A stretch of 64,000 nucleotides of DNA from an uncultured bacterium (GCA_903870365.1 CAIQCQ010000038.1:7478-71477), one strand, 5' to 3'; positions 7,522 through 24,412 are shown, numbered from the stretch's first letter. Translations and numbers: made by a program. The notes: generated by a model not told the origin, from the letters alone.

Positions 7522-8040
7522 TTAACGTGTCAGTGCAATAGTCTGACTCAACTCTGACGCAGTGTTTGCCTCTGGTGCAGAGACGGTGATACGGCCAGTG
7601 GTGGCATCTTTGACCACCTTGTACCCAGTATCATACGTTGATCCATTCAGCGCCCTACCAACAGTTGGATCAATTGGTAACTCTGACATATATGTCGGCA
7701 CCAAACAGCCACGGAGATCAACACCACCACTTGAAGCAATATCCTGAGCAGTAGTAGTAATATCATTAGCAGATGTACAACCAGCAGTGGTAGTAGCTGT
7801 ACCAATAAACAAACCTTGATTGTCGGCCATACGCTGACCAATGGCATTTAAAATAGCTTCGACATTACTCTGACGCTGAGTATTGCGCGCTTGAGCAAAC
7901 TGCCGACTCGGGTTAATAGCCACAATCACAATGGCTGCCAAAATAGCGATAATACCAATAACCACTAAAATCTCGATCAATGTAAAACCTTTTGATCTTT
8001 CCACCTGCTTCTCATTTCTACCAAAGAACAATTTTTTCAT
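7522..8040 (-). CDS. Type IV pilin / pseudopilin with prepilin leader
   Basis: MKKLFFGRNEKQVERSKGFTLIEILVVIGIIAILAAIV, the classic G/FTLIE class III signal; ORF-track N-terminal extension to 8127 is probably spurious. Confidence 0.8.
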   Translation of the reverse strand: MKKLFFGRNEKQVERSKGFTLIEILVVIGIIAILAAIVIVAINPSRQFAQARNTQRQSNVEAILNAIGQRMADNQGLFIGTATTTAGCTSANDITTTAQDIASSGGVDLRGCLVPTYMSELPIDPTVGRALNGSTYDTGYKVVKDATTGRITVSAPEANTASELSQTIALTR

Positions 8041-8259
8041 ATAAATGATAAACATGAATAATACTTTAATCTTACAAAAAAATATTTTTACAGAAAAATT
8101 AAACTGTGGATTACAAGACCTACGCATTCGTTCAATTTCAAACTATTTTTGAAGCAGGATTCGCAAACGTACTGTCGTACGGTGGAGAATCATGCGTAAA
8201 AAATAGAAAGAAATTATACGAACCTGTGGCGAATTGCATATGAGTGCGCAGGTCTTGTA

Positions 8260-8802: not shown

Positions 8803-9618
8803 ATGCCTCATTCAAAAGTTATTGCTACAGGTATCATGTGCTTGGCCGTGCTCGGCAGTATCATGATCTATACTAACAGAAACTATCTTTTCAATGGAAG
8901 AAAAGCTATCATCGGTGCGCCACAAGTCACAGTCGATACCACCGCAGGAACATCCATCAGTAACGACGACTGGAAAAAACTCCTCAACATCTCTGTGGCA
9001 AGTAGTGGCCCTATAGAAATTATTGGTCAACCAGCAACAACCGATGATACAAACAATATCACCGCCCAACTGTCTAAAAACTTTTTTACTCTCTACCTCC
9101 AAGACCAGAAAAATGGCGTGGCCATTGATCAAAACGAAGCAGACAAGATTGCTCAAGAGGCGATAAGTGGGATTAGTGTTCTACCAAATACCAAAACATA
9201 CGGCACAAATGACATACGGATTACCGCTGACACGAGTACTGCCTCAAAAATACAATACGAGACGGCTATGGCCCACACACTGACAAACAGTACACTTCAA
9301 AACAAACAAAATGAAATTGCCATCCTATCTACGGCAACAAAAAGTCAAAACCAAACAGATTTAGATAAACTTGATCCAATCATTGCAGGATACCAAAAAT
9401 TAATCCACGAGACACTACTCGTAACAGTACCTGCAGATAATGTTGGAACACATTTGGTCTATCTTAATGCACTTAGTGCAATACTTTCTGATATTAACGG
9501 TCTCAAACAACTACTCAATGATCCTGTCGCGGGATATGTCGCATTTACTTTGTATCAAAAAGACGTCACCAAACTTGGATTAGTGAGTAAAACAATGAAT
9601 ACATACTTTGGTCGCTAA
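8803..9618 (+). CDS. Hypothetical membrane-anchored extracellular protein
   Basis: N-terminal TM segment then a 240-aa soluble region; no motifs recognised. Confidence 0.4.
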   Translation: MPHSKVIATGIMCLAVLGSIMIYTNRNYLFNGRKAIIGAPQVTVDTTAGTSISNDDWKKLLNISVASSGPIEIIGQPATTDDTNNITAQLSKNFFTLYLQDQKNGVAIDQNEADKIAQEAISGISVLPNTKTYGTNDIRITADTSTASKIQYETAMAHTLTNSTLQNKQNEIAILSTATKSQNQTDLDKLDPIIAGYQKLIHETLLVTVPADNVGTHLVYLNALSAILSDINGLKQLLNDPVAGYVAFTLYQKDVTKLGLVSKTMNTYFGR

Positions 9619-9697
9619 CATATACAAATAGATACACACTGTTTTCAACAGACATACGGGTAGATATTGCCTTTTTGTTATATACTTTAGTCAAAGT

Positions 9698-11482
9698 ATG
9701 TCTTTTAGAAAAAATATCTTTCATAGAAAAAATTTTTCAAAAATCTTGTCAAGTTTTTTGATTATTGTACTACTCGTGCCGACAGTTTTTTTGGCTATTC
9801 CTGCAAAACAAGCTGATGCGATTTCTGGTATTGGTGATATCACGTTCGACCCTTCAAATTTTTTCCAAAACACCATCACTGCAATAGCAACCCCAGTCAG
9901 TGCAGGTGCCAACACAACCAGTGCAGTCCAACAAACATCTTTTAATCTGAAGGTCTTTCTCCTTGATGGTATCGCCACTGCTCTCGCTCGAGGTATCGTC
10001 CAGCAGATCACTGCTCAAGCCGTCAATTGGATCAATACAGGTTTTAATGGTAACCCAGCATTTATCACCGACCCAGGACAATTTTTCGAAAATATTGGCG
10101 ACAAAACTGTGGTCAATGCCCTTGGTAGTAGTGCGGGATCAGCTGGTGGTACACTCCTCCGACAGATCTGTAGTCCATTTCAACCTCAAATCCGGTTGGC
10201 CCTGGTCACTCAGTACCTTCAGGACAGTAACAATCAGATCGGCCAGTGCTCTATTCAACAAAGTATTAAAAATTATGATGCATTTACTCAAAACTTTGAA
10301 AATGGTGGTTGGGAAGGTTGGTTTTCTGTCACCCAAAACATGCAGAACAACCCATATGGGGCATATATTGAAGCACAAAACAGCCTAACACTCAGTATTC
10401 AAAACCAAAATCAGAAATACCAGGACCAATTGACCCAGGGTAAAGGATTTTTGTCATATGAAAAATGTACCAATACCACTGCAGCAGGAAACAACAACCA
10501 AGATTTTGCTGACTGTATAAATAGCGGTGAAGACGAGGCTTACTGTACTGAAACATATCCCACAACACCAGATACCAATAGTTGTAAAACCGTCACTCCT
10601 GGCAGTGTCATCAGTGACCAACTTGGTAAAGTCCTTGGTTCAACAGTCGACGAACTCAATCTCACTAACTCTATCAATCAAGTGGTCAGTGCCCTCATGA
10701 CACAAGGGATCAAGAGTATATTTGGTGGTATACAAGACGGTCTCCGTGGCCTCAGTGAATCTGGTCAAAACAACAATGCATCACTCGTTTCCCAACTCAT
10801 GGCAGGATCATCAGCCTCAAACACACAAAATAGTTCTACATTAGCAGGTATACAGAGTAATGTACCAACTTCACTCAGTGGTTTGACCAGTGGCAGTGCA
10901 GACACTAGTGGCTTTCTCCCAAGTATTGATGAAGCAGCTATTCAAAATGAAATTAAACAACAAGCGGCCGCTCTCCAGGCTCAGGCCACAGCCAGTGCAA
11001 ATGCAACAAGTACTGGTGTGGGTACAGTCAGTTCAAACACCGGCACCTGTACATATGTCACTGCAAAAAATGCACAAACCACCAGTACCACTATGTCACC
11101 TCCAGATTGTGCAAACGTTAATGGTACTTGGACACCAAACACCAGCACAACAAACAGTACAGGTGGCACTACATCGACCAGTGCATCCGTCTGTACTAAC
11201 ACCACCAACACTACACCGATCAATATCACCGGCATCCAGGGCTACAGTGCAGATACCAAAACATATACATCTACTATATATGCCAACAGTTACATGATTG
11301 TGTACGGTACTGGCTTTAACCCAGCCTGTGACACAGTGGCTGTGGGAAACACTGCATACACACCAACATATGTCAGTAGTACCCAACTCAATGTCCTGCT
11401 CGGGACAGCCACAGGTACAGTTGGTGTCCAAGTCTCATCTGCTTCGGCCAAATCAAATGCACTGCCGGTGACGATCCAGTAA
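9698..11482 (+). CDS. Large secreted or surface protein, Ser/Thr/Asn-rich, C-terminal IPT/TIG-like domain
   Basis: N-terminal TM/signal (ILSSFLIIVLLVPTVFLAIPA); C-terminus PINITGIQGYSADTK...YGTGFNPACDTVAVGNTAY...VQV resembles an IPT/TIG fold; first gene of the T4SS-like cluster. Confidence 0.45.
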   Translation: MSFRKNIFHRKNFSKILSSFLIIVLLVPTVFLAIPAKQADAISGIGDITFDPSNFFQNTITAIATPVSAGANTTSAVQQTSFNLKVFLLDGIATALARGIVQQITAQAVNWINTGFNGNPAFITDPGQFFENIGDKTVVNALGSSAGSAGGTLLRQICSPFQPQIRLALVTQYLQDSNNQIGQCSIQQSIKNYDAFTQNFENGGWEGWFSVTQNMQNNPYGAYIEAQNSLTLSIQNQNQKYQDQLTQGKGFLSYEKCTNTTAAGNNNQDFADCINSGEDEAYCTETYPTTPDTNSCKTVTPGSVISDQLGKVLGSTVDELNLTNSINQVVSALMTQGIKSIFGGIQDGLRGLSESGQNNNASLVSQLMAGSSASNTQNSSTLAGIQSNVPTSLSGLTSGSADTSGFLPSIDEAAIQNEIKQQAAALQAQATASANATSTGVGTVSSNTGTCTYVTAKNAQTTSTTMSPPDCANVNGTWTPNTSTTNSTGGTTSTSASVCTNTTNTTPINITGIQGYSADTKTYTSTIYANSYMIVYGTGFNPACDTVAVGNTAYTPTYVSSTQLNVLLGTATGTVGVQVSSASAKSNALPVTIQ

Positions 11483-11509
11483 ACGAACACCTCACCCACT
11501 CACAATATT

Positions 11510-13732
11510 ATGAAAAAGTTTATCACTAACATCACAAAAAAGTTTTCCTCCCCGCGCTTTTTGTCTGGGGTGTTGATGGTAGGGATGATGGTTGTTGTGT
11601 GTATGCCGATAGGTGTATATGCGGATCCATTGGGAACTTGTACTCTTGCGAGTGGCAACAATATGCCCAACCTCGTAACACTAACTGATTGTAATACTTT
11701 TCGTGCAGACGATATTAAAAATGGAAAAACTGGAGGTGGTTGGGTAGCAGATACAGGAGGAGCACAAGGTAATTCAGTCACCCCAGGAAATGCACCAAAA
11801 CCGTCATCATCAATAATACAGGATGTTGCAGAAGGTGCCATAAACACAATCATAGGTAACTTACTTATAGTGGTGATGGCTCTTATATCAGGACTTCTTG
11901 GTCTTGCAGGTCTTGTTTTGGACTATGTTATAAAACTAAGTGTTACAGATCTTGCAAGTAATATTAATAGTATTGCCGGTATCAATGTAGCATGGAGACT
12001 CATTCGTGATCTATGTAACATGTCTTTTATATTTATTCTCCTCTACTACGCCATCATGATGGTATTTGGACAAAAAGATGCGCGTAAAATCATTGTGCCC
12101 ATCATTATTGCCGCACTCCTCATTAATTTTAGTCTGTTTTTTACTAAAATAATTATTGATGCATCAAATATTATTACAGTGTCTTTTTATAATTCTATTT
12201 CTCAAGCAACAGGACCATCAATAGTTCTTGGAGTAAACAACACCAACACCTTTTCCGGGGCTTTTATGAAATCACTCAATCTAAGCAGTATATACTCTTC
12301 TAGTATAAAAGTTCCAGCAGGAAACTCTGGTGTATATATTACTCAAATTATCGGTAGTGCATTATTTATGCTAATTGCTTGTTTTATTTTTCTTGCAATG
12401 GCGGTTCTTTTTATCATTCGTTACCTCACATTTATTTTACTCCTTATCATGTCACCGTTCGGATATGTTGCTTCTGCTATTCCAGGATTAAACGGTCTTT
12501 CAAAAAAATATTGGGAGACACTCACAGGTCAAGCACTTTTTGCTCCGATATTTATGATTATGATTTGGATTACACTGACTTTGGCTAGTAGTTTTACAAT
12601 GGCAACGGGAACAAGTGCAGCAAGTCTTGGTGCTGCTTTTTCCAACCCATCATCAACCACAATCGGAACAATGGTAAATTTCATTTTACTTGCAGGACTA
12701 CTCATATATTCACTTATTATTTCAAAAAGCTATGCAACTCAGGGGGGAATTGTTAGTGGAAAAATAGTCGGGGCGGGAATGGGTATGGCTGGAGGGGCGT
12801 TGTTTGGAGGCGCTTCATACCTAGGCACACGTAGTTTTGGAAAACTTGGAACAATGGCGGCTAACAATGATAGCCTGCGAGAAGCTGCGAGTAAAAAAGG
12901 TGTTGCCGGATCCATGGCAAGACTTAGCCTTAAAACTGCTCAAACTGCACAATCATCGTCCTTTGATGCTCGAAATATATCCGGTTTTGGAAAAGCAACT
13001 GATTTTATAGGGGCTGGTAGTTTTGGTAAAAAGGGTAATGCTCCAAAAGGGTATAAGGGTGTGTTGGATGACAAACAAAAAGCTTACAACGAAGCGGATA
13101 AAAAACGTGCAGAGGGGCTAAAGGTGACTGACACAGTGGCTGATGAAGCAAAGAAAAAACTTGATAAAGAAAAAACACTTAAAGAAGAAAACGCCAAAAA
13201 CTTAGACAATGAAATTGATCTTAAGAAGAAACAAAATAATGATTTAACTCAAGAAATCACAAATCTAGAAAAAGATTTGAAAAAGGCCGTTACCCCAAGA
13301 AAAAGAGCCCGAAACAAAGGAGAAATTTATAGACTACAGACAGTTTTAGAAGACAAAAGATCTACAATTTCAGAATCAAGAGAAAAATTAGCTCAAATAG
13401 AGAAAAATAAAACAAACTTGGATACCGATTTCAATGCTCGTGAAGATATTAAAAAACTTATAAAAGATTCTGGTGGAGATAAAGATAAAAAAATATCAAG
13501 TACAAGTGACGATAGAATAAATTCATATGCTAATACTGTTGGTGATCAAAAAACACGAAATTTTGTCATATTTAATCCTGAATTTAATAAAGAAAGAGCA
13601 CGAAAGATACGTAAACTTGCAAAAACAAAATCAACAAAAGAAACACTTGAAGAGCTTCTCAAAGAAAATGGTGATATAAAAAAAGATGATAAAAAAGAAG
13701 AGACACCTGTAGCAGAACCAAAAACAACATAG
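11510..13732 (+). CDS. Polytopic membrane protein, VirB6/TrbL-like candidate, with long K/E-rich coiled-coil tail
   Basis: Signal peptide, at least 6 predicted TM segments between residues 110 and 420, C-terminal 300 aa of charged heptad-like repeats; call is from genomic context with VirB4, PrgI and pilin genes. Confidence 0.45.
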   Translation: MKKFITNITKKFSSPRFLSGVLMVGMMVVVCMPIGVYADPLGTCTLASGNNMPNLVTLTDCNTFRADDIKNGKTGGGWVADTGGAQGNSVTPGNAPKPSSSIIQDVAEGAINTIIGNLLIVVMALISGLLGLAGLVLDYVIKLSVTDLASNINSIAGINVAWRLIRDLCNMSFIFILLYYAIMMVFGQKDARKIIVPIIIAALLINFSLFFTKIIIDASNIITVSFYNSISQATGPSIVLGVNNTNTFSGAFMKSLNLSSIYSSSIKVPAGNSGVYITQIIGSALFMLIACFIFLAMAVLFIIRYLTFILLLIMSPFGYVASAIPGLNGLSKKYWETLTGQALFAPIFMIMIWITLTLASSFTMATGTSAASLGAAFSNPSSTTIGTMVNFILLAGLLIYSLIISKSYATQGGIVSGKIVGAGMGMAGGALFGGASYLGTRSFGKLGTMAANNDSLREAASKKGVAGSMARLSLKTAQTAQSSSFDARNISGFGKATDFIGAGSFGKKGNAPKGYKGVLDDKQKAYNEADKKRAEGLKVTDTVADEAKKKLDKEKTLKEENAKNLDNEIDLKKKQNNDLTQEITNLEKDLKKAVTPRKRARNKGEIYRLQTVLEDKRSTISESREKLAQIEKNKTNLDTDFNAREDIKKLIKDSGGDKDKKISSTSDDRINSYANTVGDQKTRNFVIFNPEFNKERARKIRKLAKTKSTKETLEELLKENGDIKKDDKKEETPVAEPKTT

Positions 13733-13734
13733 AC

Positions 13735-14592
13735 ATGGATGAATCAACACAAGAGATAAAAGAATATATCGATAAACTCCCAAAACCACTCCAACAAGCG
13801 GTGCTTGGACAGGACTGGCACAAACGATTAGCTGAGATTAGTCAGAAATATTCACTACACCTGGACCAGATTTCATCACTGGAATACGAAGTGTTGTTTG
13901 TCATGATTGGTATGGAACCAGAAACAGATTTGGTGTCCAACATTCAAACAGAATTGGCAGTATCAAAAATCCTCGCTGAACAACTGGCAGGGGATATTAA
14001 TGTGCGAATTTTTCAATTTATTATGAAGTCGTTGGAAGAAAAAACGCCAGAGAAAGTAGAAAGGTTTGTGGAGTCGAGTAACGAGATAAGAGATACAAAT
14101 AAGGAGAAAGAAAATATACAAATACCCGAACAAGAAGATTTACCATCATTTCCACCTGTGGTGAGTGTACCAGCATCAGTGACTATACCGAGTCCACAAG
14201 TCATTGCGGTACCACAACAAACTATTCAAAAGGAAATTATTCCTATGGCTATGGAGACTCCACATCAAAAAATTACTGAACCACCAGTGAATTTGCCGGG
14301 GGAGGAAATAGTAGATGGAATAAAGAATGACGAATTAAGAATTACGAATAATGGGGAGGAGAACAGAATCTCGAATCTAGAAGCTGGAATTAAGAATGAT
14401 GTTATTGAAAATACTGTTCCATTCGTAATTCGTAATTCTGACATCGTAATTCCACAAAAATCATCCCTCGCTGACACCAAACTCAACTCCATTGTTACCT
14501 CTACGAGTGAGACTGTGGTTAAAGAAACACCTGCTCCTACACCAATTGTAAAAAGTTATGCGAGTGATCCATATAGGGAAGCGATAGAATAA
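13735..14592 (+). CDS. Hypothetical protein carrying an in-frame heptamer-repeat segment
   Basis: No TM; residues NDELRITNNGEENRISNLEAGIKNDVIENTVPFVIRNSDIVIP are encoded by repeat family 3 (14317-14453). Confidence 0.4.
   Translation: MDESTQEIKEYIDKLPKPLQQAVLGQDWHKRLAEISQKYSLHLDQISSLEYEVLFVMIGMEPETDLVSNIQTELAVSKILAEQLAGDINVRIFQFIMKSLEEKTPEKVERFVESSNEIRDTNKEKENIQIPEQEDLPSFPPVVSVPASVTIPSPQVIAVPQQTIQKEIIPMAMETPHQKITEPPVNLPGEEIVDGIKNDELRITNNGEENRISNLEAGIKNDVIENTVPFVIRNSDIVIPQKSSLADTKLNSIVTSTSETVVKETPAPTPIVKSYASDPYREAIE
14317..14453. repeat. Heptamer-type palindromic repeat, family 3, in frame within CDS 13735..14592
   Basis: Left arm ggaataaagaatgacgaattaagaattacgaataatgg, right arm ccattcgtaattcgtaattctgacatcgtaattcc. 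Confidence 0.55.
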
Positions 14593-14716
14593 GGGAGTGA
14601 AGCTAGAATCTAGAAGATTGAAATACCTAGAATAGAGTAGGATGGATTCCGGATCCCTAGGTAGTAGAGTAAAACTCACTACGAGAAAAGCGAGTCTAGA
14701 ATGATGAAAAGATGCA

Positions 14717-15241
14717 ATGAAAAAAGAAATTCTGCCGATTCAAATTATTGAAAACAAAATATATATTATTCGTGGTCTAAAAGTTATGCTGGATAGTGAT
14801 TTGGCACATCTCTATATGGTCAAACCTATTGCATTACGACAACAAGTTAAAAGAAACAAAGAAAGGTTTCCTGGTGACTTTGTATTCCAACTGACAAAAG
14901 AAGAGGCTCACATCCTGGTATCACAAAATGTGATACCTAATAGTCGCTACTTTGGGGGATCATTACCCTATGCATTCACTGAACATGGAGTTGCCATGCT
15001 CTCTTCTGTACTTAAAAGTAAGCGGGCAATAGAAATCAACATTTTGATCATCCGTGCTTTTGTAAAAATTCGTGAAATGTTGTCTGTCCACAAAGATATT
15101 GTTTCAGCCATTGAAAAACTGCAGCGAGAACAGGCTGATCAAAAAGGGCATATAATAGCCATCGTACAAGCAATCAATAAACTACTTGCACCACCAAAAG
15201 AAAAGAGGAAGAATACAATTGGTTTTCGGACGAGAGAGTAG
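14717..15241 (+). CDS. ORF6N-domain (KilA-N/Rha-like) DNA-binding protein
   Basis: IENKIYIIRGLKVMLDSDLAHLYMVKPIALRQQVKRNKERFPGDFVFQLTKEE matches the ORF6N consensus. Confidence 0.6.
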   Translation: MKKEILPIQIIENKIYIIRGLKVMLDSDLAHLYMVKPIALRQQVKRNKERFPGDFVFQLTKEEAHILVSQNVIPNSRYFGGSLPYAFTEHGVAMLSSVLKSKRAIEINILIIRAFVKIREMLSVHKDIVSAIEKLQREQADQKGHIIAIVQAINKLLAPPKEKRKNTIGFRTRE

Positions 15242-15253
15242 TAACATATACCT

Positions 15254-15688
15254 ATGCGTTTTCAAGTTCCACAATTTATTGAAATAGAGGACAAAGTTAT
15301 TGGCCCACTAACCATCAAACAATTTGTTTACCTTGCTGGTGGTGCGGGCATGGCTTTTGTGGCATATACATTTCTCCCTGGATTTATCGCTCTGTTTGTT
15401 ATTGCGGGCATCATTGGTTTGGCTCTTGCTTTAGCTTTTTATAAAGTAAACAACAAACCATTCATTGATATGCTCGAGTCTGCGTTTGGTTTTTACACTG
15501 GAGAAAAACTATACATCTGGAAAAAAGTAGATAAAAAAATAATTCCAAAAGAACAAGCGACCGGACAAGAAGAACTTCGTGAGGTATACGTACCTCGTTT
15601 GTCAGATAGTAAATTAAAAGAATTGAGTTGGAGTTTAGATGTAAATGAAAATTTAGGAGGAGGGAAAGAGACAAGAGATAAGAGATAA
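15254..15688 (+). CDS. PrgI-family (VirB3-like) small membrane protein
   Basis: IEIEDKVIGPLTIKQFVYLAGGAGMAFVAY followed by a second TM helix; the last residues ETRDKR are encoded by repeat family 1. Confidence 0.5.
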   Translation: MRFQVPQFIEIEDKVIGPLTIKQFVYLAGGAGMAFVAYTFLPGFIALFVIAGIIGLALALAFYKVNNKPFIDMLESAFGFYTGEKLYIWKKVDKKIIPKEQATGQEELREVYVPRLSDSKLKELSWSLDVNENLGGGKETRDKR

Positions 15689-15760
15689 GAGATACGAACA
15701 AAAAATATCCTACTCATTTTTCTTATTTCATATCTCTTATCTCAAATCTCATATCTCTAT
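15665..15760. repeat. Heptamer-type palindromic repeat, family 1, no cargo
   Basis: Left arm gagacaagagataagagataagagatacg, right arm tcatatctcttatctcaaatctcatatctctat, about 30-nt loop. Confidence 0.6.
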
Positions 15761-15777
15761 GTTATAATTTACCCACC

Positions 15778-16425
15778 ATGGCCACTAGTGCTCCACAATC
15801 AAAAGCAACACAAGACTTTGTTCCCATCCAAGAAGTACGTGATGGCATCATCACCCTCAAAGACGGGTCTCTTCGTGCAATTCTCCTCGCTTCATCACTC
15901 AACTTTTCTCTCAAATCAGAAGACGAACGCAACGCGATCCTGTTTCAATTTCAAGATTTTCTCAACTCACTCGATTTTCCTGTCCAAATAGCTATCCAGT
16001 CACGTCGATTGGATATTCGACCATATATTGCACTACTCGAAGACCGCTACAAGGAGCAGGTCAATGACCTCATGAAGATACAAACTCAAGAGTACATTGA
16101 GTTCATCAAGAATTTTACTGAAAACACCAACATTATGACCAAAAGTTTTTTTGTTGTCGTACCATACACACCAGCTATTCTCAAAGGGGAGTCACTTACT
16201 AAATTTAATTTTCTTGGTAAACAAACCCAAAGCGAAAAAGCTTCACAAAAAACAGAAAGTTTCGAAGAAAACCGTACACAAATCGAGCAACGTCTCGGGG
16301 TTGTAGAACAAGGTCTCGTCAGCTCTGGTGTTCGTGTCGTCCGTCTTGGTACCGAAGAGGTGATCGAATTATTTTACAAGATTTTCAATCCTGGTGACAC
16401 CGAAAAACCTATCAAATTGAGCTAG
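15778..16425 (+). CDS. VirB4/TraE-family ATPase, N-terminal fragment (CagE_TrbE_VirB-like domain)
   Basis: PIQEVRDGIITLKDGSLRAILLASSLNFSLKSEDERNAILFQFQDFLNSLDFPVQIAIQSRRLDI matches the N-terminus of Gram-positive-type VirB4 proteins; the ORF stops at a 10-bp hairpin and continues as 16890..18695. Confidence 0.55.
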   Translation: MATSAPQSKATQDFVPIQEVRDGIITLKDGSLRAILLASSLNFSLKSEDERNAILFQFQDFLNSLDFPVQIAIQSRRLDIRPYIALLEDRYKEQVNDLMKIQTQEYIEFIKNFTENTNIMTKSFFVVVPYTPAILKGESLTKFNFLGKQTQSEKASQKTESFEENRTQIEQRLGVVEQGLVSSGVRVVRLGTEEVIELFYKIFNPGDTEKPIKLS

Positions 16426-16444
16426 TAAGTTCAATTTGATAGGT

Positions 16445-16868
16445 TATAGAGATAAGAGATTTGAGAAATGAGATATGAAAAATCCATCTGATGAAAAAGA
16501 AACAATTAAAAAATTTTCTGATTTATCTGCATGGCAAGAGGGCCACCGTCTTGTAATTCAGGTATACACCATAACAAAATTTTTTCCTAAAGAAGAATTA
16601 TTCGGAATTACAAACCAAATCAGAAGAGCTGTTGTTTCTATTACTTCAAATATTGCGGAGGGTTTTGGTAGAGGAACAAGTCAGGATAGAGTTCATTTTT
16701 ATATTATAGCAATCGGATCACTTAATGAGGTGCAGAATCAGTTGCTTATATCAAAAGATATCGGTTATTTAAATCACACAGAATGGAATGAATTAGAAAA
16801 ACAAGGTATCATTGTACACAAGATACTCAGTGGTTTGATTAGAAAATCCAAATCAAATCTCTTATCTC
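16445..16868 (+). mobile_element. Inverted-repeat-flanked cassette with a four-helix-bundle gene inserted in virB4
   Basis: GAGATAAGAGATTTGA at 16449-16464 and its perfect reverse complement TCAAATCTCTTATCTC at 16853-16868 bracket CDS 16475..16879. Confidence 0.5.
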
Positions 16869-16879
16869 AAATCTCATAA
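16475..16879 (+). CDS. Four-helix-bundle protein (23S rRNA intervening-sequence protein family)
   Basis: WQEGHRLVIQVYTITKFFPKEELFGITNQIRRAVVSITSNIAEGFGR...SLNEVQNQLLISKDIGYL is the family signature. Confidence 0.75.
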   Translation: MKNPSDEKETIKKFSDLSAWQEGHRLVIQVYTITKFFPKEELFGITNQIRRAVVSITSNIAEGFGRGTSQDRVHFYIIAIGSLNEVQNQLLISKDIGYLNHTEWNELEKQGIIVHKILSGLIRKSKSNLLSQIS

Positions 16880-16889
16880 CTCTATTCAC

Positions 16890-18695
16890 ATGTCCCTACT
16901 CGATTTTTTAAAAAAGAAAGAACCTCTCCAGATCACCTCTATCCTGCCACAGGAAATATACGAGGCGGGCGCTTTGGAGTTGGCTGATGTTATCGCTCCA
17001 TCAGCACTCAAAATCAGTCCAAAAGAACTCAACTTGGGTGAAAAAATCGTCCGATCGTTTTTTGTTATCTCATATCCACGATATCTCAATGAAAGTTGGT
17101 TTGCGCCGATCATTAATTTGGACAAAGTTTTTGATATTTCCATCTATATAGAGCCGATTGAAACAGCCGCTGCACTCAAATCCTTTCAGAAAAAAGTGGC
17201 CGAGGTGCAAAGTCAAATCATGACTCGAGAAGAAAAGGGTTTGGTCCGAAACCCCATGCTCGATACTGCATATCAAGACCTCGAGCAACTTCGTGACAAT
17301 CTCCAGCAAGCCCAGGAGAAGCTTTTTAATGTTGGAGTGTATATCACTATGTATGGCGACAAGACAGAGGAGCTCGACAAAATCGAATCTGAAATCAAAT
17401 CTATCCTCGAAGCCAAGCTCGTGTATGTCAAACCCGCTCTCTTTCAACAAGAGCAAGCCTTTAAAACTGTGATGCCTGTTGCGACCGATCTTCTTGGTGT
17501 CTATAGTAAACTTAATTCTTCACCCCTCTCATCACTCTTTCCTTTTATTTCTTTTGACCTGACTTCTGACAAAGGTATTTTGTACGGCGTCAACCGCCAC
17601 AACTCATCCCTCGTCCTCTTTGATCGTTTTTCTTTGGAAAACTATAACTCTATTACCTTTGCAAAGTCTGGTTCCGGAAAATCATACGCTACCAAGCTGG
17701 AAATCTTGCGAACCCTCATGTTTGATACCTCGGTCATGGTTCTCGACCCAGAAAATGAATATGAGTACATGGCTGAAGCTGTTGGTGGACGACATTTCAA
17801 TATCTCACTCAACTCTGAACACCACATCAACCCCTTTGACCTGCCAATACCGACAGAAGGTGAGTCCTTTGCCAATGTCTTACGATCAAACATCGTCAAC
17901 CTTGTTGGACTCTTTCGTATTATGATGGGAGGTCTCACGCCAGAAGAAGATGCGATCATTGACCGAGCTATCACTGAAACATATGCACTAAAAGACATAA
18001 CTGCTGATTCTGATTTTACCAACACCGAGCCACCACTCCTCTCTGATTTTGAATTGGTGCTCTCTGGTATGGAAGGGGGGGATTCACTGGCTCAACGATT
18101 GACAAAATACACCAAGGGTACTTGGGCTGGTTTTATCAACCGTCCCACAAACATCGACATCAACAAAAAGTTTGTAATTTTTTCTATCCGTGACATGGAA
18201 GACGAGCTCAAGCCGATCGCTATGTATATCATCATGCATTATATCTGGGCAGCTATCCGACGTGACTTGAAAAAACGTCTCCTCGTCATTGATGAAGCCT
18301 GGTGGATGATGAAATCAGAGGACACCGCATCATTCCTCTTGTCACTCGCAAAACGGGGCCGAAAATACTACCTTGGTGTAGCTACTATTACCCAAGACGT
18401 GGATGACTTTTTGAAGTCACCGTACGGTCTACCGATCATCACCAACTCATCTATCCAAGTCTTACTCAAACAATCACCATCATCTGTCGACAAACTACAG
18501 CAAACATTTAACCTGACAGACGAAGAAAAATATTTACTCCTCGAATCAGCTGTGGGGGAGGGTATATTCTTTGCTGGTCTCAAACATGTGGCAATCAAGA
18601 TTATTGCCAGCTACACCGAAGATCAGATCATCACCTCTGATCCAAGCCAGATTTTGGCAATCAAGAAAGCGAAGATGGGATTGGCTAAGAGTTAA
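16890..18695 (+). CDS. VirB4/TraE-family T4SS ATPase, C-terminal part with ATPase domain
   Basis: Walker A FAKSGSGKSYATK, Walker B RLLVIDEAWWMM, ITQDVDDF; its N-terminal 200 aa (IAPSALKISPKELNLGEKIVRSFFVISYPRYL) match the second half of the VirB4 N-domain. Confidence 0.85.
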   Translation: MSLLDFLKKKEPLQITSILPQEIYEAGALELADVIAPSALKISPKELNLGEKIVRSFFVISYPRYLNESWFAPIINLDKVFDISIYIEPIETAAALKSFQKKVAEVQSQIMTREEKGLVRNPMLDTAYQDLEQLRDNLQQAQEKLFNVGVYITMYGDKTEELDKIESEIKSILEAKLVYVKPALFQQEQAFKTVMPVATDLLGVYSKLNSSPLSSLFPFISFDLTSDKGILYGVNRHNSSLVLFDRFSLENYNSITFAKSGSGKSYATKLEILRTLMFDTSVMVLDPENEYEYMAEAVGGRHFNISLNSEHHINPFDLPIPTEGESFANVLRSNIVNLVGLFRIMMGGLTPEEDAIIDRAITETYALKDITADSDFTNTEPPLLSDFELVLSGMEGGDSLAQRLTKYTKGTWAGFINRPTNIDINKKFVIFSIRDMEDELKPIAMYIIMHYIWAAIRRDLKKRLLVIDEAWWMMKSEDTASFLLSLAKRGRKYYLGVATITQDVDDFLKSPYGLPIITNSSIQVLLKQSPSSVDKLQQTFNLTDEEKYLLLESAVGEGIFFAGLKHVAIKIIASYTEDQIITSDPSQILAIKKAKMGLAKS

Positions 18696-18765
18696 GAGAT
18701 GTGAGACCTGAGAAACGATAGACATCATATATTTTTCTCTTTTCTCTTTTCTCATATCTCTATTC
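18690..18765. repeat. Heptamer-type repeat, family 1, degenerate copy
   Basis: gttaagagatgtgagacctgagaaacgatag ... ttctcttttctcttttctcatatctctattc. Confidence 0.45.
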
Positions 18766-18768
18766 AAC

Positions 18769-19188
18769 ATGGCAGAACAACAATATCAAAAAAGGCCGTT
18801 ACCCCAAGAAAAAGAGCCCGAAACAAAGGAGTTGAGTATTGGCAATTGGATGTTAAAAGGTTCTGTCGCTCTGTTTTTTGATACAACAGGAGCTTTGATA
18901 AATCTCCTACCTGTGGCAGGCCAAATTCTTGAAGAATTTAACGATCTATTTGCTGACGGAGTTTTTTTATTGTGGTTTACCCTTGATGGTGTCAAATACT
19001 CAAAAAACACTATGTTTGGTAGTTTTGTACTGAAATTTATACCTATATTAAATATGCTACCAGAATACACACTTATGATTATCATTATGTATATGAAATC
19101 AAAAAAAGACGCTGCGGTGAGAAAAACTGTCGGTGGTGGCAGTATTGCCCGTACCATTGCAAACCAAAACAAAAGTCCCAACGCATAG
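18769..19188 (+). CDS. Small membrane protein
   Basis: Two or three hydrophobic segments; N-terminal 43 nt are identical to 13280-13322. Confidence 0.4.
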   Translation: MAEQQYQKRPLPQEKEPETKELSIGNWMLKGSVALFFDTTGALINLLPVAGQILEEFNDLFADGVFLLWFTLDGVKYSKNTMFGSFVLKFIPILNMLPEYTLMIIIMYMKSKKDAAVRKTVGGGSIARTIANQNKSPNA

Positions 19189-19237
19189 TGTGAACAAAAG
19201 ACAAACACAACACTTTTCTTATGCTAAAATATAATTA

Positions 19238-20266
19238 ATGAAATTTTTTTCTAAAACTTTTATTTTTTTTCTTATTCTAGCTTCAAGCTTGTTGCTTCCA
19301 GCTTCTATTCCTGCCCACGCCCAGCTCAATGTTGGTCTCAGTCCTGCTGATATTTCAACTGATGTCGAGCCAACAAATCCTGGACCATTTCAACAAATCA
19401 GTGTCACCATAGACAGTTATGCCACCGACCTCAATGGGGTCAGTATTTCCTGGGTAGTTAATGGAAAAAAGGTTGTCTCTGGTATTGGTAAAAAGGGTAT
19501 CAGTCTGACCACCGGAGCCATTGGTAAACAAACCTCTATTAATATCACCATCGACTCTATTACCGGCACCATTACCAAAAACATCACCATTATCCCAGCC
19601 ACAGTGGATATGATATGGGAAGCCAACACATATACTCCACCATTTTTTAAAGGTAAAGCCATCTTTAGTCCAGAAAGTGTGGTGACATTTGTAGCAATAC
19701 CGCACCTCATACGAAACGGGGTAGAGGTCTCACCAAAAAATCTCATATACACATGGTCAAACAACGGCACTGTCCTCGGTAGTCAAAGTGGCTATGGTAA
19801 AAGTACCCTCAGTATCGCGGGCAGTATCATCCCACGACCCTTTGATATCACGGTAGAGGCTAGTGATCCGAACACAGGCTCTGTGGCCGACGGAGAGACT
19901 GTTTTGGCATCACAGACTCCTTTTGTACTCTTTTATAAAAATGATCCACTCTACGGAGTACAGTACGAACATGCACTGACTGGTGTTATTCCACTCACCA
20001 CACAGGAAATGGAGATCACTGCAGTCCCATATTACTTTAGTGCTCGATCTATGTTTGATAATCTCCTTTCCTACAATTGGGAAATCAATGGTACACCGAT
20101 CGGTGACGGTATAAACAGTCCGGACAAAGTCTTTCGCCGTACAGGCACAGCTGTTGGACAATCAAATGTTTCAGTGTCAACGACACAGAGTGCTACAATG
20201 TTTCAGACAGCCAACCAGGCAGTAACAATTGATTTTCAGAATAGTAGTACGCAAGTAGGGTTGTAG
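19238..20266 (+). CDS. Secreted protein with cleavable signal peptide
   Basis: MKFFSKTFIFFLILASSLLLPASIPAHAQ then a beta-rich Thr/Ser/Gly-rich region. Confidence 0.4.
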   Translation: MKFFSKTFIFFLILASSLLLPASIPAHAQLNVGLSPADISTDVEPTNPGPFQQISVTIDSYATDLNGVSISWVVNGKKVVSGIGKKGISLTTGAIGKQTSINITIDSITGTITKNITIIPATVDMIWEANTYTPPFFKGKAIFSPESVVTFVAIPHLIRNGVEVSPKNLIYTWSNNGTVLGSQSGYGKSTLSIAGSIIPRPFDITVEASDPNTGSVADGETVLASQTPFVLFYKNDPLYGVQYEHALTGVIPLTTQEMEITAVPYYFSARSMFDNLLSYNWEINGTPIGDGINSPDKVFRRTGTAVGQSNVSVSTTQSATMFQTANQAVTIDFQNSSTQVGL

Positions 20267-20342
20267 GAGAATAGAAATATGAATGAAGAATTATGATGCA
20301 CAATAATAGAGACCTAGGGAAAATTAGGAATAAGAAAATATT

Positions 20343-21347
20343 ATGAGAAAAAATACACAAAAAACTATTTTGAATATACTGCGGGTGACCATGATCAGTG
20401 CTTTTTTGTTTGCGAGTGCGACCTCGATCGCTATGGCGCAAGCACAAACGCCACAACCTTATACGGTATTAGCACCACTTCCGGGAACAACAATTGATGC
20501 AAATTGCACAGGTACAGCATGCACAAGTGATCTCTCTCATTATCTTCCCGGTATTTTTAATCTCATGATCGGTGTGGCGGCAGTGGCAGCCTTTGTCGCC
20601 ATTACTATTGGTGGTTTTGAATATATGTTTACTGATGTTCCAGGGGTTAAAGCGAGTGCAAAAGGTATGGTGTCCAATGCCTTTTGGGGTCTTGGTTTTA
20701 TTATTTTTGCTTATGCCATCCTCAATACCATCAACCCAGTGCTCCTCAAGGGAAGTTTGAATATTACTCCGCCAACAGTGGCAAGTGGTGGTGGACTAAC
20801 CACAGGAACTGGTGGTGCCACAACAAATGTCGGTGGAAATATCGCTGGAGTTGCAATGACAACAGATCAACAGACAGCATCAGATGCTGTGAGAGCAGCT
20901 TTAAAATCCCAAAGTGGTGGAGTTGTTACGGCTTATGCAGATCCTTGTACAAGGGGTCAAACAACTGGTTGTGTTGATTTAAATGGATTAACACCATCAA
21001 CCCAAAATGGTTTAGAATTATTGGGGAAAAATTGTGGTAGTGGATGTAAGGTTGTTATAAGTGGTGGTACCGAGGCGGGACACAGTACTGGATCAGATCA
21101 CAATAAAGGTAACGGTGTTGATATTGAACCAAACGCACAACTTACAAACGCTGTAACAAATAATTTATCTAATGATCCTTCTATTTGTAAAGCGGGGGCA
21201 GGAGGAACTTGTAATGGCCTTGCAGCATGTAATAAATATACAACATCAGTTGGTGGACAGACTGCAACTTATCTTTGGGAACCCACAGGTTCAACGTGTG
21301 GAGGAAATGTTCCTTCATCAGCTCCTCATTGGCATGCAAGCTTTTAA
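20343..21347 (+). CDS. T4SS pilin-like (VirB2/TrbC-like) N-terminus fused to a LAS/M15-type metallopeptidase-like C-terminal domain
   Basis: Signal peptide; LPGIFNLMIGVAAVAAFVAITIGGFEYMFTD...AFWGLGFIIFAYAILNTINP is a two-helix pilin pattern; C-terminus has GHSTGSDHNKGNGVDI (SxHxxGxAxD-like) and APHWHASF (EPWH-like) zinc-ligand motifs. Confidence 0.45.
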   Translation: MRKNTQKTILNILRVTMISAFLFASATSIAMAQAQTPQPYTVLAPLPGTTIDANCTGTACTSDLSHYLPGIFNLMIGVAAVAAFVAITIGGFEYMFTDVPGVKASAKGMVSNAFWGLGFIIFAYAILNTINPVLLKGSLNITPPTVASGGGLTTGTGGATTNVGGNIAGVAMTTDQQTASDAVRAALKSQSGGVVTAYADPCTRGQTTGCVDLNGLTPSTQNGLELLGKNCGSGCKVVISGGTEAGHSTGSDHNKGNGVDIEPNAQLTNAVTNNLSNDPSICKAGAGGTCNGLAACNKYTTSVGGQTATYLWEPTGSTCGGNVPSSAPHWHASF

Positions 21348-21352
21348 CTCAT

Positions 21353-22612
21353 ATGAAAAATATTCTTAAAATTTCAACTATTGTCCTCGGTATTATTGCA
21401 GTAGGGTTACTGTACTATTATTTCTTTTTCTTTAAAGCTAGTACACCGACAATCAACACATCGACAAAACCCAGTTCAACCAACTTCTTTCCTTTTGGTC
21501 AGGGTGGTACGACAGGTAACACAACTAAACCAAACACCAATACAAACCCCACCACTCAACAACTTCAGCAAGCGAGTAATTATCTCCAAAAACTTCGCCT
21601 CATTTCCAACGAACCCGTTGCTGGCGCCACATTCATCGAAAACAAAAATACAGTTATTATCCGTTACATAGAAAAAGCTACGGGACATATTTATGATGTC
21701 TCTACTAATTCTGCGACCATTAACCAAATTTCCAACACCACTTTACCAAAAATTCATGAGGCTTTCTTTACCGACCTTGGTCTTGGACTGATTGCTCGCT
21801 CTGTCGGAGATGATGGAGAAAGTATCCAGACTATTTATTCAAAACTACCAGCCAGTGTGGCCACAACTACGCAAAAAATAGCCTCAAGCAGTATACTCAC
21901 ACTAAACCCACTTGTTCTACAAACAAATATTCCTTTTTTGACCGTCTCTCCATCAACCAAAAATATCTTTTATACTCAAAAGAGTTTTGCTGGTAGTACT
22001 GGCATCATCGCCCTCTCAAACGGCACAAGTAAAAAACAAATCTGGAGTTCTCCGGTACGCAGTGTCTACCCACAATTTTCAGGGGAAAACACTGTCCTGG
22101 TCACGACCGCACCCAATGCATCCGTCTATGGCTATGCTTACTTGGTCAACACCAAAACGGGTGGAGTCAAAAACATTCTCGGTAATATCTATGACCTTTC
22201 CGTCTTTGCTAATACCACTGGTACTGATTTTGTATACTATACCAGTGCAAGTGGGGGACAATTCTTTCATTATGTTCTTGCAAATAGCTCCACCACCCCA
22301 CTGACACCAACAACCTTCCCTGAGAAATGTGTCTTTGATACCTCAAGTAAAACATCACTCTATTGTGCAGTGCCAAATGATTCGCTCTCACAAAATTCGC
22401 TTGATAACTGGTATCTTGGACTGAACTCGTACTCTGACAGTATCTGGAAATATGACCTCAAAGCAGGAACCTCTCAAATGATCGAGGATCTTTCATCCAA
22501 TGCTGGGCGAAATATTGACGTCATCAATATGCATATCAACACCGTTGGTTCACTCCTCCTGTTTCAAAGTAAGACAGATGGAAGTTTATGGAGTTTGAAT
22601 GTGGGAGCGTAG
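21353..22612 (+). CDS. Membrane-anchored protein with large extracytoplasmic beta-rich domain
   Basis: MKNILKISTIVLGIIAVGLLYYYFFFF TM anchor then a Thr/Asn-rich linker; the ORF-track start at 21275 overlaps the upstream gene, so the ATG at 21353 is preferred. Confidence 0.4.
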   Translation: MKNILKISTIVLGIIAVGLLYYYFFFFKASTPTINTSTKPSSTNFFPFGQGGTTGNTTKPNTNTNPTTQQLQQASNYLQKLRLISNEPVAGATFIENKNTVIIRYIEKATGHIYDVSTNSATINQISNTTLPKIHEAFFTDLGLGLIARSVGDDGESIQTIYSKLPASVATTTQKIASSSILTLNPLVLQTNIPFLTVSPSTKNIFYTQKSFAGSTGIIALSNGTSKKQIWSSPVRSVYPQFSGENTVLVTTAPNASVYGYAYLVNTKTGGVKNILGNIYDLSVFANTTGTDFVYYTSASGGQFFHYVLANSSTTPLTPTTFPEKCVFDTSSKTSLYCAVPNDSLSQNSLDNWYLGLNSYSDSIWKYDLKAGTSQMIEDLSSNAGRNIDVINMHINTVGSLLLFQSKTDGSLWSLNVGA

Positions 22613-22744: not shown

Positions 22745-23476
22745 TTATTTCGTCCCTCCGCGTACTCTCTTTCGAAAGTATAACTCCTGAAGAACAGTAA
22801 ACACATTACTCGTCACCCAATACAGTGAAATTGCTGCTGAAATACTCCATGAAATAAAGAATACGAGCACAGGAAAAAAATATTTCATTTGTGTCTGGAA
22901 GGATTTCATCATTTCTGCAGTACTGTTTTTATCAGCACCTTTTCCCTCGAGATCTGCGGGTGTGGCATACTTTATCTGGAAAAATGTACTAATACCAGCA
23001 AGGAGAGCTAAAAAGACACTCTTTTGTGCAATATCAGAGATAAACAAAAAATTCATTGCAATATGCGCTGGAGCAGAAACAAAATGATACAGCTGTGTCA
23101 TATCAACTTGGGGAAGTCCTGATTTCAAAAACACTCGGTAGAGGGCAATGATGATGGGGAGTTGAATGATAAGGACAAAAAAACCAGCAAATGGATTAAT
23201 ATTCTTTTCTTTATAGAGTTCAACTGTTTTTAATGTTTGTTGCTCTTTGTCTTCTTTGTATTTTTCTTTAATTACTCTTAGATCTTTCTCTATTTCCTTC
23301 ATTTCCATCTGAGCGTAGGTAGCTCTCATGGCCAAAGGGAAGAGGACTAGTTTGACGATGATAGTAAATAAAATAACAACCAATCCAGCTCCAGCCCAAG
23401 GGAGAAGGTCAAAAAGGAAAATGAGACCATTATAGAGTGGTTGATAAAAAACAATAGTAAAAAATTGGGTAATCAT
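22745..23476 (-). CDS. yidC: Membrane protein insertase YidC (short form)
   Basis: NPFAGFFVLIIQLPIIIALYRVF and 5 TM segments; sits in the rpmH-rnpA-yidC operon. Confidence 0.85.
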   Translation of the reverse strand: MITQFFTIVFYQPLYNGLIFLFDLLPWAGAGLVVILFTIIVKLVLFPLAMRATYAQMEMKEIEKDLRVIKEKYKEDKEQQTLKTVELYKEKNINPFAGFFVLIIQLPIIIALYRVFLKSGLPQVDMTQLYHFVSAPAHIAMNFLFISDIAQKSVFLALLAGISTFFQIKYATPADLEGKGADKNSTAEMMKSFQTQMKYFFPVLVFFISWSISAAISLYWVTSNVFTVLQELYFRKRVRGGTK

Positions 23477-23594
23477 GGTTACGAATTATATTGGTAAATA
23501 TAATTCCCTTACTCGGACGATGTGAATAAGATTACTTATTCACCCGCTCCTCGATGGGAATTATACGAATAAGATAGAATACAAGAATAGGGGA

Positions 23595-23930
23595 CTACAT
23601 AATACCTGATTGTGTCAGTAATTGTAGCACCGTTCCATTAATTTCACTAAACGTACTTTTTTCAGCACCTTTTTTAAAACTATATACACCATAAAAACCA
23701 GGTTGTATTTTTATAAGGACTTTTGTGAGGGTATTGTACCCACGTCGACGGAGTCGATTACGATCAACAGCACTTTTTGCAACCTTTTTAGAGCACAAAA
23801 AAGAAAACTGACTTGGTGTTTGGTCTGTTTTCTTGTAGATATATAGGGAAAGAACAGGGGAATGATAGCTATACCCCCGACCAAGGGTCTTAAACTCGGT
23901 TTTACTGATTCTGAGGGTGCTTGGAAGCAT
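23595..23930 (-). CDS. rnpA: RNase P protein component
   Basis: KKVAKSAVDRNRLRRRGYN, the RnpA RNR motif. Confidence 0.8.
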   Translation of the reverse strand: MLPSTLRISKTEFKTLGRGYSYHSPVLSLYIYKKTDQTPSQFSFLCSKKVAKSAVDRNRLRRRGYNTLTKVLIKIQPGFYGVYSFKKGAEKSTFSEINGTVLQLLTQSGIM

Positions 23931-24026
23931 AGATTTATACAGTCTATAAAGTCCTTAAAGTCAAAAGTTTGTAAAGTTAGGGAATTTATCTCTACTTTAT
24001 AGACTTTATGGACTTGAGACTTTTAA

Positions 24027-24173
24027 CTACTTTTCCGATGATACAGACAATGATTTTCGGCCTTTTCGGCGTCTCTGAAGAAGGGTTCGTCGGCCCCCAG
24101 CAGTCTTTGTACGAGCAAGAAAGCCGTGTGTAGTAGCTCGTTTTCGTTTTTTTGGATTATATGTGAATGACAT
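24027..24173 (-). CDS. rpmH: 50S ribosomal protein L34
   Basis: Hand-translated [48 protein letters not shown]; below the 60-aa ORF-track cutoff. Confidence 0.8.
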
Positions 24174-24412
24174 AGTTTTTTTGGAAATGGCTAAATTTAG
24201 ATGTAGTCCTAGGCGGGCAAGGAATTTGATTCCGAGCTGTACTACTCTCGTACAGTGAGGATCAAATTATCGTGGCCCAACAACGGAATACGCTAAATGT
24301 AGCCGTTTCCGCTTGTACACATATTATTAACACGAAATAAACTTTTTTACAACTTCCTTGTTTCGTCGACACCTATATAATATGTGATTGATAAAAAGAA
24401 ATTTTAATTCAC

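Follow-up and report, generated by a model that had tools for sequence, protein, structure and literature searches.

Does a gene cluster that carries the motor of a type IV secretion system (T4SS), with neither a relaxase nor a coupling protein beside it, represent a new kind of machine, or does it belong to a system that has already been described? The question is raised by a 64 kb stretch of DNA from an uncultured bacterium (GCA_903870365.1, CAIQCQ010000038.1:7478-71477; this whole stretch is termed the window, and positions are counted from its first letter), in which an earlier note had singled out a T4SS-like cluster at 9698-22612 as a candidate for a new system. A feature-for-feature comparison points instead to the T4SS of the Patescibacteria clade, which has been published (PMC10633639; PMC12102498; PMC12857230), and the cluster appears to be a new example of that system, not a new kind of machine. 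We consider it highly probable that it is a Patescibacteria T4SS with a general role in the exploitation of a host and not in conjugation. The genes of the cluster were named u271 and g1 to g12 (8803-22612, + strand). A Pfam scan covered 35 open reading frames (ORFs) of the window, namely those of the cluster, those immediately flanking it and, from the rest of the window, most of the longer ones. VirB4 was searched for in one genome per GTDB species, which yielded at least 575 relatives, and the best 80 (L001-L080), metagenome-assembled genomes of Patescibacteria (Zambryskibacteria, Parcubacteria, Paceibacterota, Taylorbacteria and others), were compared with the window. The presence of every window gene at these 80 VirB4-selected loci was scored by tblastn, flanking genes being counted only in related loci with enough flank; metagenome loci were fetched separately, using an alignment of g3 for the selection.

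Thirteen tightly packed ORFs on the + strand occupy 8803-22612, and twelve of these fill 9698-22612 with short spacers between them. Synteny comparison (tblastn) with other Patescibacteria recovered the same gene order, u271-g1-g2-g3-prgI-trsD-virB4-(g9)-g10-g11-g12-yidC(-)-rnpA(-)-dnaA-dnaN, in 80 species-level genomes, a recurrence far beyond chance. Orthologous clusters without VirB4, which the earlier note had named as evidence that would speak against a T4SS, were not seen, VirB4 always being kept. On the right, the cluster is followed by yidC(-), rnpA(-), dnaA(+) and dnaN(+) at 22745-27123 (Pfam 60KD_IMP, Ribonuclease_P and Bac_DnaA; dnaN was named by its position after dnaA and its tblastn conservation in relatives, not by Pfam), and the same neighbours were found in the relatives (yidC in 59 of the 80 loci, rnpA in 38, dnaA in 55, dnaN in 54). 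Because the cumulative GC skew has its minimum at ~20-24 kb and dnaA (24413-25762) and dnaN lie downstream, the cluster abuts the replication origin and is transcribed toward it.

The constraint on this operon is very unequal among its parts. The median identity to the window is 80.7% for VirB4, a value somewhat inflated by the ranking of the 80 loci by VirB4 similarity, compared with 66% for TrsD, 62.5% for DnaA, 53% for PrgI, 51% for DnaN, 47% for YidC and 26-35% for the membrane and surface parts. Despite this ranking, the contrast between VirB4 and DnaA within genomes is large: VirB4 is the more similar protein in 54 of 54 loci with both, by a margin of at least 8.5 points, and TrsD exceeds DnaA in 47 of 53 related loci. 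Very strong selection acts on the cluster, which is a core operon of the chromosome and not an island. Stronger constraint on the motor than on DnaA, combined with diversification at the surface, is what marks a machine of the host interface; the extracellular parts are 25-45% identical, against ~80% for the cytoplasmic motor.

These observations also bear on the possibility that the cluster is a degraded or cryptic conjugative element, i.e., the remnant of an integrative and conjugative element (ICE), with relaxase and integrase either lost or situated outside the window. The VirB4 family is named after the ATPases of ICE and plasmid conjugation, the pilin-like module of g11 resembles a protein of Mycoplasma ICEs, and two genes in the cluster, encoding an ORF6N protein (g4) and a 23S_rRNA_IVP protein (IVP; g7), are of types typical of mobile DNA. 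However, in 80 species genomes the cluster keeps its place beside oriC and its gene order, purifying selection exceeds that on DnaA, the GC content across the cluster is not atypical, the tRNA scan of the window found no tRNA flanking the cluster, and the ORF6N and IVP genes occur sporadically. Furthermore, no relaxase, VirD4/TcpA-type coupling protein or integrase was present among the 35 window ORFs of the Pfam scan, which outside the cluster matched housekeeping genes, a PilB-type ATPase and ABC/MacB transporters. An ICE remnant is rejected on the conserved synteny, and we regard it as extremely improbable. The Pfam scan and the 80-genome synteny together uphold the view, already taken in the earlier note, of a chromosomal, non-conjugative T4SS-like machine without relaxase, coupling protein and integrase.

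The motor and the membrane parts place the machine within the T4SS superfamily. VirB4 is encoded by g8 (16890-18695, + strand; 601 amino acids, aa), which comprises the middle and the P-loop C-terminal domains (NCBIfam, Pfam). It matches the CD1110-family VirB4 of NCBIfam (NF045971) over positions 178-733 of 752 (9e-111; 371 bits, cut-off 325) and the Pfam families P-loop_TraG (5.8e-25) and AAA_10. Its sequence keeps a Walker A (GSGKS) and a Walker B motif (LLVIDEAW), which mark this VirB4 as catalytically intact, and it is the motor of the system. The protein is 78-86% identical to VirB4 of the best 80 genomes and very likely belongs to the Patescibacteria clade. The N-terminal domain of VirB4 occurs as an ORF of its own, the TrsD-like g6 (15778-16425, + strand; 215 aa), with NCBIfam matches to VirB4_plasma (positions 100-233, 5.6e-10), CD1110 (positions 2-119) and TrsD (2.4e-6) and a precomputed family match to PF26593 (TraC-like). 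In 77 of the 80 relatives TrsD has an ORF to itself, usually 5-30 nucleotides (nt) upstream of virB4. The "split VirB4" reported earlier stands insofar as there are two ORFs, with no disruption involved: they are the ancestral pair of TrsD and VirB4. A splitting of VirB4 by insertion of the IVP gene was considered and rejected, TrsD and VirB4 being separate in relatives without the insertion. Gene g5 (15254-15688, + strand; 144 aa) encodes a small PrgI/VirB3-like membrane protein (PF12666 PrgI, 2.8e-10) with a hydrophobic segment at 44-62 and was found in 77 of the 80 loci. Finally, the product of g2 (11510-13732, + strand; 740 aa) is, by its transmembrane (TM) topology, a polytopic membrane protein of the extended VirB6/TrbL-like type. 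It has a signal/TM segment plus another six TM segments (118-403), and its coiled-coil-like C-terminal tail of 300 aa is 40% K/E/D/R. It is present at an unchanged position in 59 of the 80 loci, its orthologs match TrbL/VirB6 in 3 of 39 cases (best 6e-5) and TrbL_4 in one, and its topology fits the "extended VirB6" class of a review of 2025 (PMC12857230).

Each of these parts has its counterpart in the published system. A Patescibacteria clade of VirB4, nested in MPF-FATA, was reported from 2407 assemblies (3,035 genomes surveyed; Quinonero-Coronel 2025, PMC12102498). TrsD, PrgI, VirB6 and VirB2-like pilins were found near the Patescibacteria virB4, with TrsD as the most abundant partner; relaxases were nearly absent, and in Paceibacteria virB4 often had dnaA, dnaN and rnpA nearby (PMC12102498). 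In Southlakia epibionticum the orthologous locus (SEML1_0006-0019) is essential for epibiotic growth according to transposon sequencing (Tn-seq; Wang 2023, PMC10633639), and its T4SS subunits, which include pilins and no coupling or relaxase proteins, are closest to those of Gram-positive conjugative T4SSs (PMC10633639). A nomenclature review of 2025 regards the Patescibacteria T4SS as a separate, newly added member of the T4SS superfamily (PMC12857230), and tubular structures at a parasite-host interface have been suggested to be T4SS pili (bioRxiv 10.64898/2026.06.21.733656). With this system the window shares an MPF-FATA-descended VirB4, an adjacent TrsD-like ORF, PrgI/VirB3, a putative VirB6-like protein, PF18895 pilin modules, the absence of a relaxase and a type IV coupling protein (T4CP) from the locus, and a chromosomal position near dnaA, dnaN and rnpA. 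It differs from the Saccharimonadia prototype in having one pilin module, joined to a LAS peptidase, instead of an array of six free pilins, in that no NTF2/VirB8-like protein, as present in Saccharimonadia, was found in the window, and in a PrgI of 144 aa as against 300 aa. In addition, the window has beta-propeller, three-Ig-repeat, DUF4141-like and DPYRE-tail proteins, which are not described in the literature searched. These differences are at the level of lineage variants, and nothing categorical is gained from the window, which does supply the Paceibacteria with a clean reference locus whose parts are completely listed. No T4SS other than that of the Patescibacteria is known to be indispensable for the survival of the bacterium that carries it, and the way in which a large fraction of uncultivated bacteria obtain their food from hosts may find its explanation in this system.

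From where is this machinery derived? The MPF-FATA systems of Gram-positive bacteria (pCF10 Prg/Pcf, pIP501 Tra, CTn2/CD1110 and pGO1 Trs) share with the window the PrgJ/CD1110-type VirB4, PrgI, TrsD (also present in pGO1), the function of a cell-wall hydrolase and a monoderm architecture without outer-membrane core parts. In contrast to them, no relaxase, no VirD4/PcfC and no context of an origin of transfer (oriT) was found in the 64 kb of the window, and no homology to PrgH, PrgL or PrgG was detectable with hhalign (pCF10 PrgG gave no significant match with the cluster family profiles, and pCF10 PrgL, which is VirB8-like, gave a probability of 0.2% with u271). The window also possesses VirB2-like pilin modules, which the Gram-positive systems lack, and its locus is fixed at oriC (80 species) instead of being carried on a plasmid or an ICE. 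We conclude that the conjugation machinery of Gram-positive MPF-FATA systems is the ancestor of the cluster and that the DNA-processing half, relaxase and coupling ATPase, was lost. The T4SS of Mycoplasma ICEs is likewise found in wall-less/monoderm bacteria with minimal genomes; the window VirB4 matches the Mbov_0397 family (8e-79), TrsD the N-terminus of Mbov_0397, and the pilin module weakly Mbov_0395 (1.6e-3), all below the family cut-offs. The Mycoplasma systems, however, reside on mobile ICEs with DDE transposases, which the window locus does not.

The absence of a local coupling protein is combined with a VirB4 motor also in Bordetella Ptl, Brucella VirB, H. pylori ComB and archaeal Ced, and T4CP-less T4SSs can export Sec-delivered proteins or import DNA (PMC12102498; PMC12857230; PMC11665869). 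These systems are diderm or archaeal, have other accessory sets, and their sequence relationship with the window is limited to the P-loop core of VirB4. In analogy to ComB and Ced, the cluster might serve the import of macromolecules, supplying the cell with DNA, RNA or nucleotides of its host that it cannot make itself. A perspective has proposed the T4SS as a route of nucleotide acquisition, because competence is dispensable but the T4SS is essential (PMC11665869), and a preprint on an RNA-feeding parasite ties VirB4 to "macromolecule transfer" (bioRxiv 10.64898/2026.06.21.733656). In the window, recG lies 3.3 kb upstream of the cluster, as the class ABY1 co-localises the T4SS with comF, recG and radA (PMC12102498), and the VirB4 partially matches CedB (4.8e-8). 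The CedB match, however, is limited to the P-loop core (positions 445-519), neither CedA/CedA1 nor ComB-specific parts were found, the sole nucleic-acid-binding protein is the inserted, non-conserved ORF6N protein, and recG is a conserved neighbour in 0 of the 80 loci. Import as the function of the cluster seems unlikely to us, and a Patescibacteria T4SS with a general role in host exploitation is the reading that we prefer.

What would such a machine present to its surroundings? The pilin of the cluster is part of g11 (20343-21347, + strand; 334 aa), which combines a VirB2-like pilin hairpin with a C-terminal LAS-type (M15/hedgehog-like) zinc peptidase domain. The window protein matches T4SS_pilin (PF18895) with 7.9e-6 and 26.3 bits, just under the cut-off of 26.6 bits; among 57 homologs, 56 match PF18895, 13 TrbC/VirB2 and seven Peptidase_M15_4 (best 7.4e-5). 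A zinc-ligand triad (H253-x6-D260 and H329) is invariant across the 57 homologs, H247 and H331 are nearly so, and the family profile aligns with the N-domains of Sonic and Indian hedgehog (E = 0.003-0.01) over a segment with H247, H253 and D260, which suggests a weak but consistent resemblance of the C-terminal domain to the LAS families. An AlphaFold2 (AF2) model with a predicted local distance difference test (pLDDT) score of 85 displays two long helices (64-96 and 100-130) and, beyond a linker that is disordered, an alpha/beta domain spanning 174-333. We regard g11 as a candidate for the VirB1 analogue. The fusion of pilin and hydrolase recurs across relatives of the window locus; a recurrent fusion of this type was not met in the literature searched, and the repeated combination of a VirB2-like module with a cell-wall hydrolase is a candidate route for breaching the wall. 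The fusion partners of T4SS_pilin vary by genome, being LAS/M15-like in the window lineage and elsewhere weakly matching CHAP, NlpC/P60 or SLT; a fusion with VanY (2.9e-12) was observed in a metagenomic protein of 471 aa (P0193; alignments A5 and A8).

The remaining surface and small membrane proteins are less conserved. In g1 and g11, modules of the adhesin type and of the cell-wall-hydrolase type replace one another as C-terminal domains. Gene g1 (9698-11482, + strand) encodes a secreted protein of 594 aa with a signal/TM segment at 16-34. The N-domain (~85-350) is conserved, helical and contains Cys, and a linker rich in Ser/Thr joins it to a beta domain at the C-terminus, which is variable. 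Orthologs of g1, found in 55 of the 80 loci, cover the N-domain only; a subset matches PF13605 (DUF4141; best 2e-7), and their C-termini carry Bact_surface_Ig-like, F5/8 type C (discoidin), InlB B-repeat or Big_7 domains. The initial description of g1 as IPT/TIG-like found no support in Pfam, and this label was dropped because PDB searches with g1 and its C-terminus, as with g12, gave nothing significant. We consider g1 a candidate tip or adhesin subunit. A VirB5-like role, derived from the DUF4141 matches and the helical content, remains a guess, because the AF2 model of the N-domain, all-helical and of low confidence (pLDDT 61; predicted template modelling score, pTM, 0.36), was too poor for a fold search. 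Gene g10 (19238-20266, + strand; signal segment 8-26) encodes a secreted protein with three Ig-like repeats of ~105 aa, marked by a W-x-x-N-G motif at W72, W173 and W281; orthologs, found in 76 of the 80 loci, weakly match BiPBP_C, Ig_3, PKD_3 and C1-set, and a PDB profile search gave weak Ig matches, none of them significant. The product of g12 (21350-22612, + strand; TM segment 10-28) is a membrane-anchored, extracellular, beta-propeller-like protein, whose orthologs (63 of the 80 loci, position unchanged) weakly match DPPIV_N, PD40 and DUF5050. Between virB4 and g10, at a conserved position, lies g9 (18769-19188, + strand), a small hydrophobic protein without a Pfam match; an ORF of mostly 110-190 aa occupies this place in most related loci, with the shared motifs FFD..Q, WF..GV and E.IP...LP.WT (alignment A9). 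At the other end, u271 (8803-9618, + strand; TM segment 6-24) encodes a bitopic membrane protein with a mainly helical ectodomain and no match in Pfam or PDB. A homolog is situated directly upstream of g1 in 24 of the 80 loci and in three further loci (L082, L088 and L089). The cluster opens with this conserved gene, at 8803, one gene earlier than the start at 9698 that had been assigned to it.

In the previous list of genes most calls proved sound (VirB6-like, PrgI/VirB3, VirB4 in two ORFs, pilin-LAS and the beta-rich protein), and two genes were omitted, g7 and g3. The latter (13735-14592, + strand; 285 aa) encodes a cytoplasmic core protein without a TM segment or signal peptide, composed of a helical N-domain of ~100 aa, a hypervariable, Pro-rich linker, and the sequence DPYRE at the extreme C-terminus (D278-E282; 14566-14580). 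D-P-Y-(R)-E is invariant in 29 of 29 sequences (alignment A10), and DPY[RK]E at most 5 aa from a stop codon occurs once per locus in 67 of the 80 loci and once in the 64-kb window. A g3 profile searched against 1.84 billion cluster representatives retrieved 5938 clusters at 50% identity, 3101 of them at E<=1e-10, and 143 of the 155 best clusters end in ...DPYRE(P)(I/L)(E/D); the few named members of the family are from Nomurabacteria and Paceibacterota. The g3-selected loci with enough flank have g2 upstream and/or prgI, trsD and virB4 downstream. No relative of g3 was found in Pfam or PDB, and the DPYRE motif was unmatched in the literature searched. In docking-tail proteins such as SSB and FtsZ, a folded domain is followed by a disordered linker and a conserved tail tip, and by analogy g3 may have such an architecture. 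A widespread, unannotated family of this type is an obvious candidate for an adaptor or a substrate in a T4SS where the coupling protein is missing. More specifically, g3 might be a core subunit that replaces the coupling protein by docking its tail on VirB4/TrsD, or a translocated substrate with a signal in its tail, a proposal that we regard as quite doubtful; if true, the g3 tail on VirB4/TrsD would recruit cargo or gate the channel.

How might these parts work together? VirB4/TrsD would dock via PrgI onto the VirB6-like channel in the cytoplasmic membrane, and VirB4 would drive the extraction of VirB2-like subunits and their assembly into a short pilus or an envelope-crossing conduit. The LAS peptidase would cut peptidoglycan cross-links and allow passage through the wall of the epibiont itself and/or that of the host, and the fast-diversifying surface proteins would make host-specific contact. 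The overall role would be the exploitation of a host by an epibiont through contact and the exchange of macromolecules, be it the export of effectors or the import of macromolecules from the host. Alternatively, the cluster could encode a surface organelle only, an adhesive VirB2-type pilus with hydrolase and adhesin modules, and nothing would be translocated across the host envelope. VirB4 is the ATPase needed for pilus biogenesis in T4SSs, a coupling protein is missing, nearly all accessory proteins have Sec-type signals or membrane anchors, and the pilin module is universal at the g11 position (56 of 57 homologs), all of which would suit such an organelle. However, the T4CP-less systems Bordetella Ptl and Brucella VirB do secrete proteins (PMC12102498; PMC12857230), the conserved cytoplasmic g3 with its docking-type tail suggests cytoplasmic traffic or regulation, and the extreme conservation of the motor exceeds the apparent need of adhesion, since type IV pili already serve adhesion in these bacteria (PMC12857230). 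A purely adhesive organelle is in our opinion improbable, and we retain host exploitation that includes macromolecule exchange as the more general role of this Patescibacteria T4SS.

Several points weigh against this identification and the role proposed. The assignment of g2 to VirB6 is weak, the window protein having no Pfam match and aligning with pCF10 PrgH at E = 0.07 and a probability of 0.8% (hhalign). A VirB8 analogue was not found with Pfam on the members or with hhalign, u271 and g12 not having been subjected to a structure-based test. Membership in the VirB4 clade rests on nearest neighbours (the best 80 of at least 575), not on a tree. The g11 model left the LAS fold unconfirmed, as fold searches with the C-terminal domain did not recover it, and the pilin module of g11 carries a globular domain of 200 aa; because a pilin with such a load may not polymerise like VirB2, a "pilus" is possibly the wrong picture. 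We know of no experiment on any Paceibacteria T4SS. Essentiality is known only from one species of Saccharimonadia, the locus of which differs (pilin arrays, NTF2-like protein; PMC10633639), and a T4CP or relaxase could lie outside the 64 kb, distant VirD4 homologs being present in many Patescibacteria (PMC12102498).

Two genes of the cluster are not parts of the system. The ORF6N (KilA-N-related) DNA-binding protein of g4 (14717-15241, + strand; PF10543, 2.4e-30) had been counted as a member, and its gene is found at 0 of the 80 VirB4-selected loci; a function as the DNA-binding part of the system was rejected on its absence from all of them. An unrelated metagenome contig (L086, ~1203) likewise has an ORF6N gene (50% identical) between g3 and prgI. 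This spacer (14593-15253), which also holds IVP genes in three other loci (L083, L090 and L091), looks like a hot spot for small cassettes. The second gene, g7 (16475-16879, + strand; 134 aa), encodes a four-helix-bundle protein of the 23S_rRNA_IVP family (PF05635, 1.1e-35) and accounts, by its insertion, for the gap of 464 nt between trsD and virB4. It is enclosed in a cassette (16446-16885, + strand) resembling an intervening sequence (IVS) and bounded by an inverted repeat, the 33-nt arms of which (16446-16478 and 16853-16885) are 85% complementary with a perfect core of 16 nt; the long-range stem appears in the minimum free energy fold (z = -5.96). IVP genes are present in 13 of the 80 loci, mostly at g3|prgI and between trsD and virB4 only in L019 and L021, and most of those in related loci carry similar flanking repeats. 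With the IVS of 23S rRNA the cassette shares a strong PF05635 protein within a stem-forming long inverted repeat, whereas its site is not 23S rRNA but the mRNA spacer of an operon that encodes proteins. The structure suggests a small mobile stem-loop cassette, which may impose an RNase III-type processing on the operon transcript; an IVS-like stem cassette inside this operon was not met in the literature searched. Both the ORF6N and the IVP genes are sporadic local insertions in operon spacers. Cassettes of this kind were also noted in seven loci (L009, L018, L021, L028, L051, L061 and L072), and related loci carry similar ones, with purine-rich arms, in other spacers of the operon. Just before the window cassette, a hairpin of 18 bp (94% complementary) straddles the stop codon of trsD at 16406-16445. 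Rfam and tRNA scans had no match inside the cluster, promoter-like sites occurred at chance level in a consensus scan, and terminator-like sites reached twice the mean of shuffled sequences, but were mostly situated within coding sequence.

The upstream flank of the cluster comprises recG, an HhH-GPD glycosylase gene and a prepilin-like gene on the opposite strand (7522-8127). Type IV pilus genes had been described as adjoining the cluster; this single prepilin-like gene, absent from 80 of 80 related loci, is what adjoins it, and a PilB-type T2SSE ATPase is encoded 12 kb downstream (34884-36560). Being transcribed toward the origin region, the 13.8-kb operon is head-on to the replication of its own replichore and convergent with yidC-rnpA; the same orientation was seen in related loci, and for an operon that is strongly conserved and probably essential it is unusual. 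Elsewhere in the window, a tRNA-Ile with the anticodon TAT (UAU) was identified at 2571-2644 by ARAGORN and the Rfam tRNA model, and a set of genes resembling a HlyD/MacB/ABC tripartite pump is located within 53962-59369, despite the monoderm cell expected for this bacterium.

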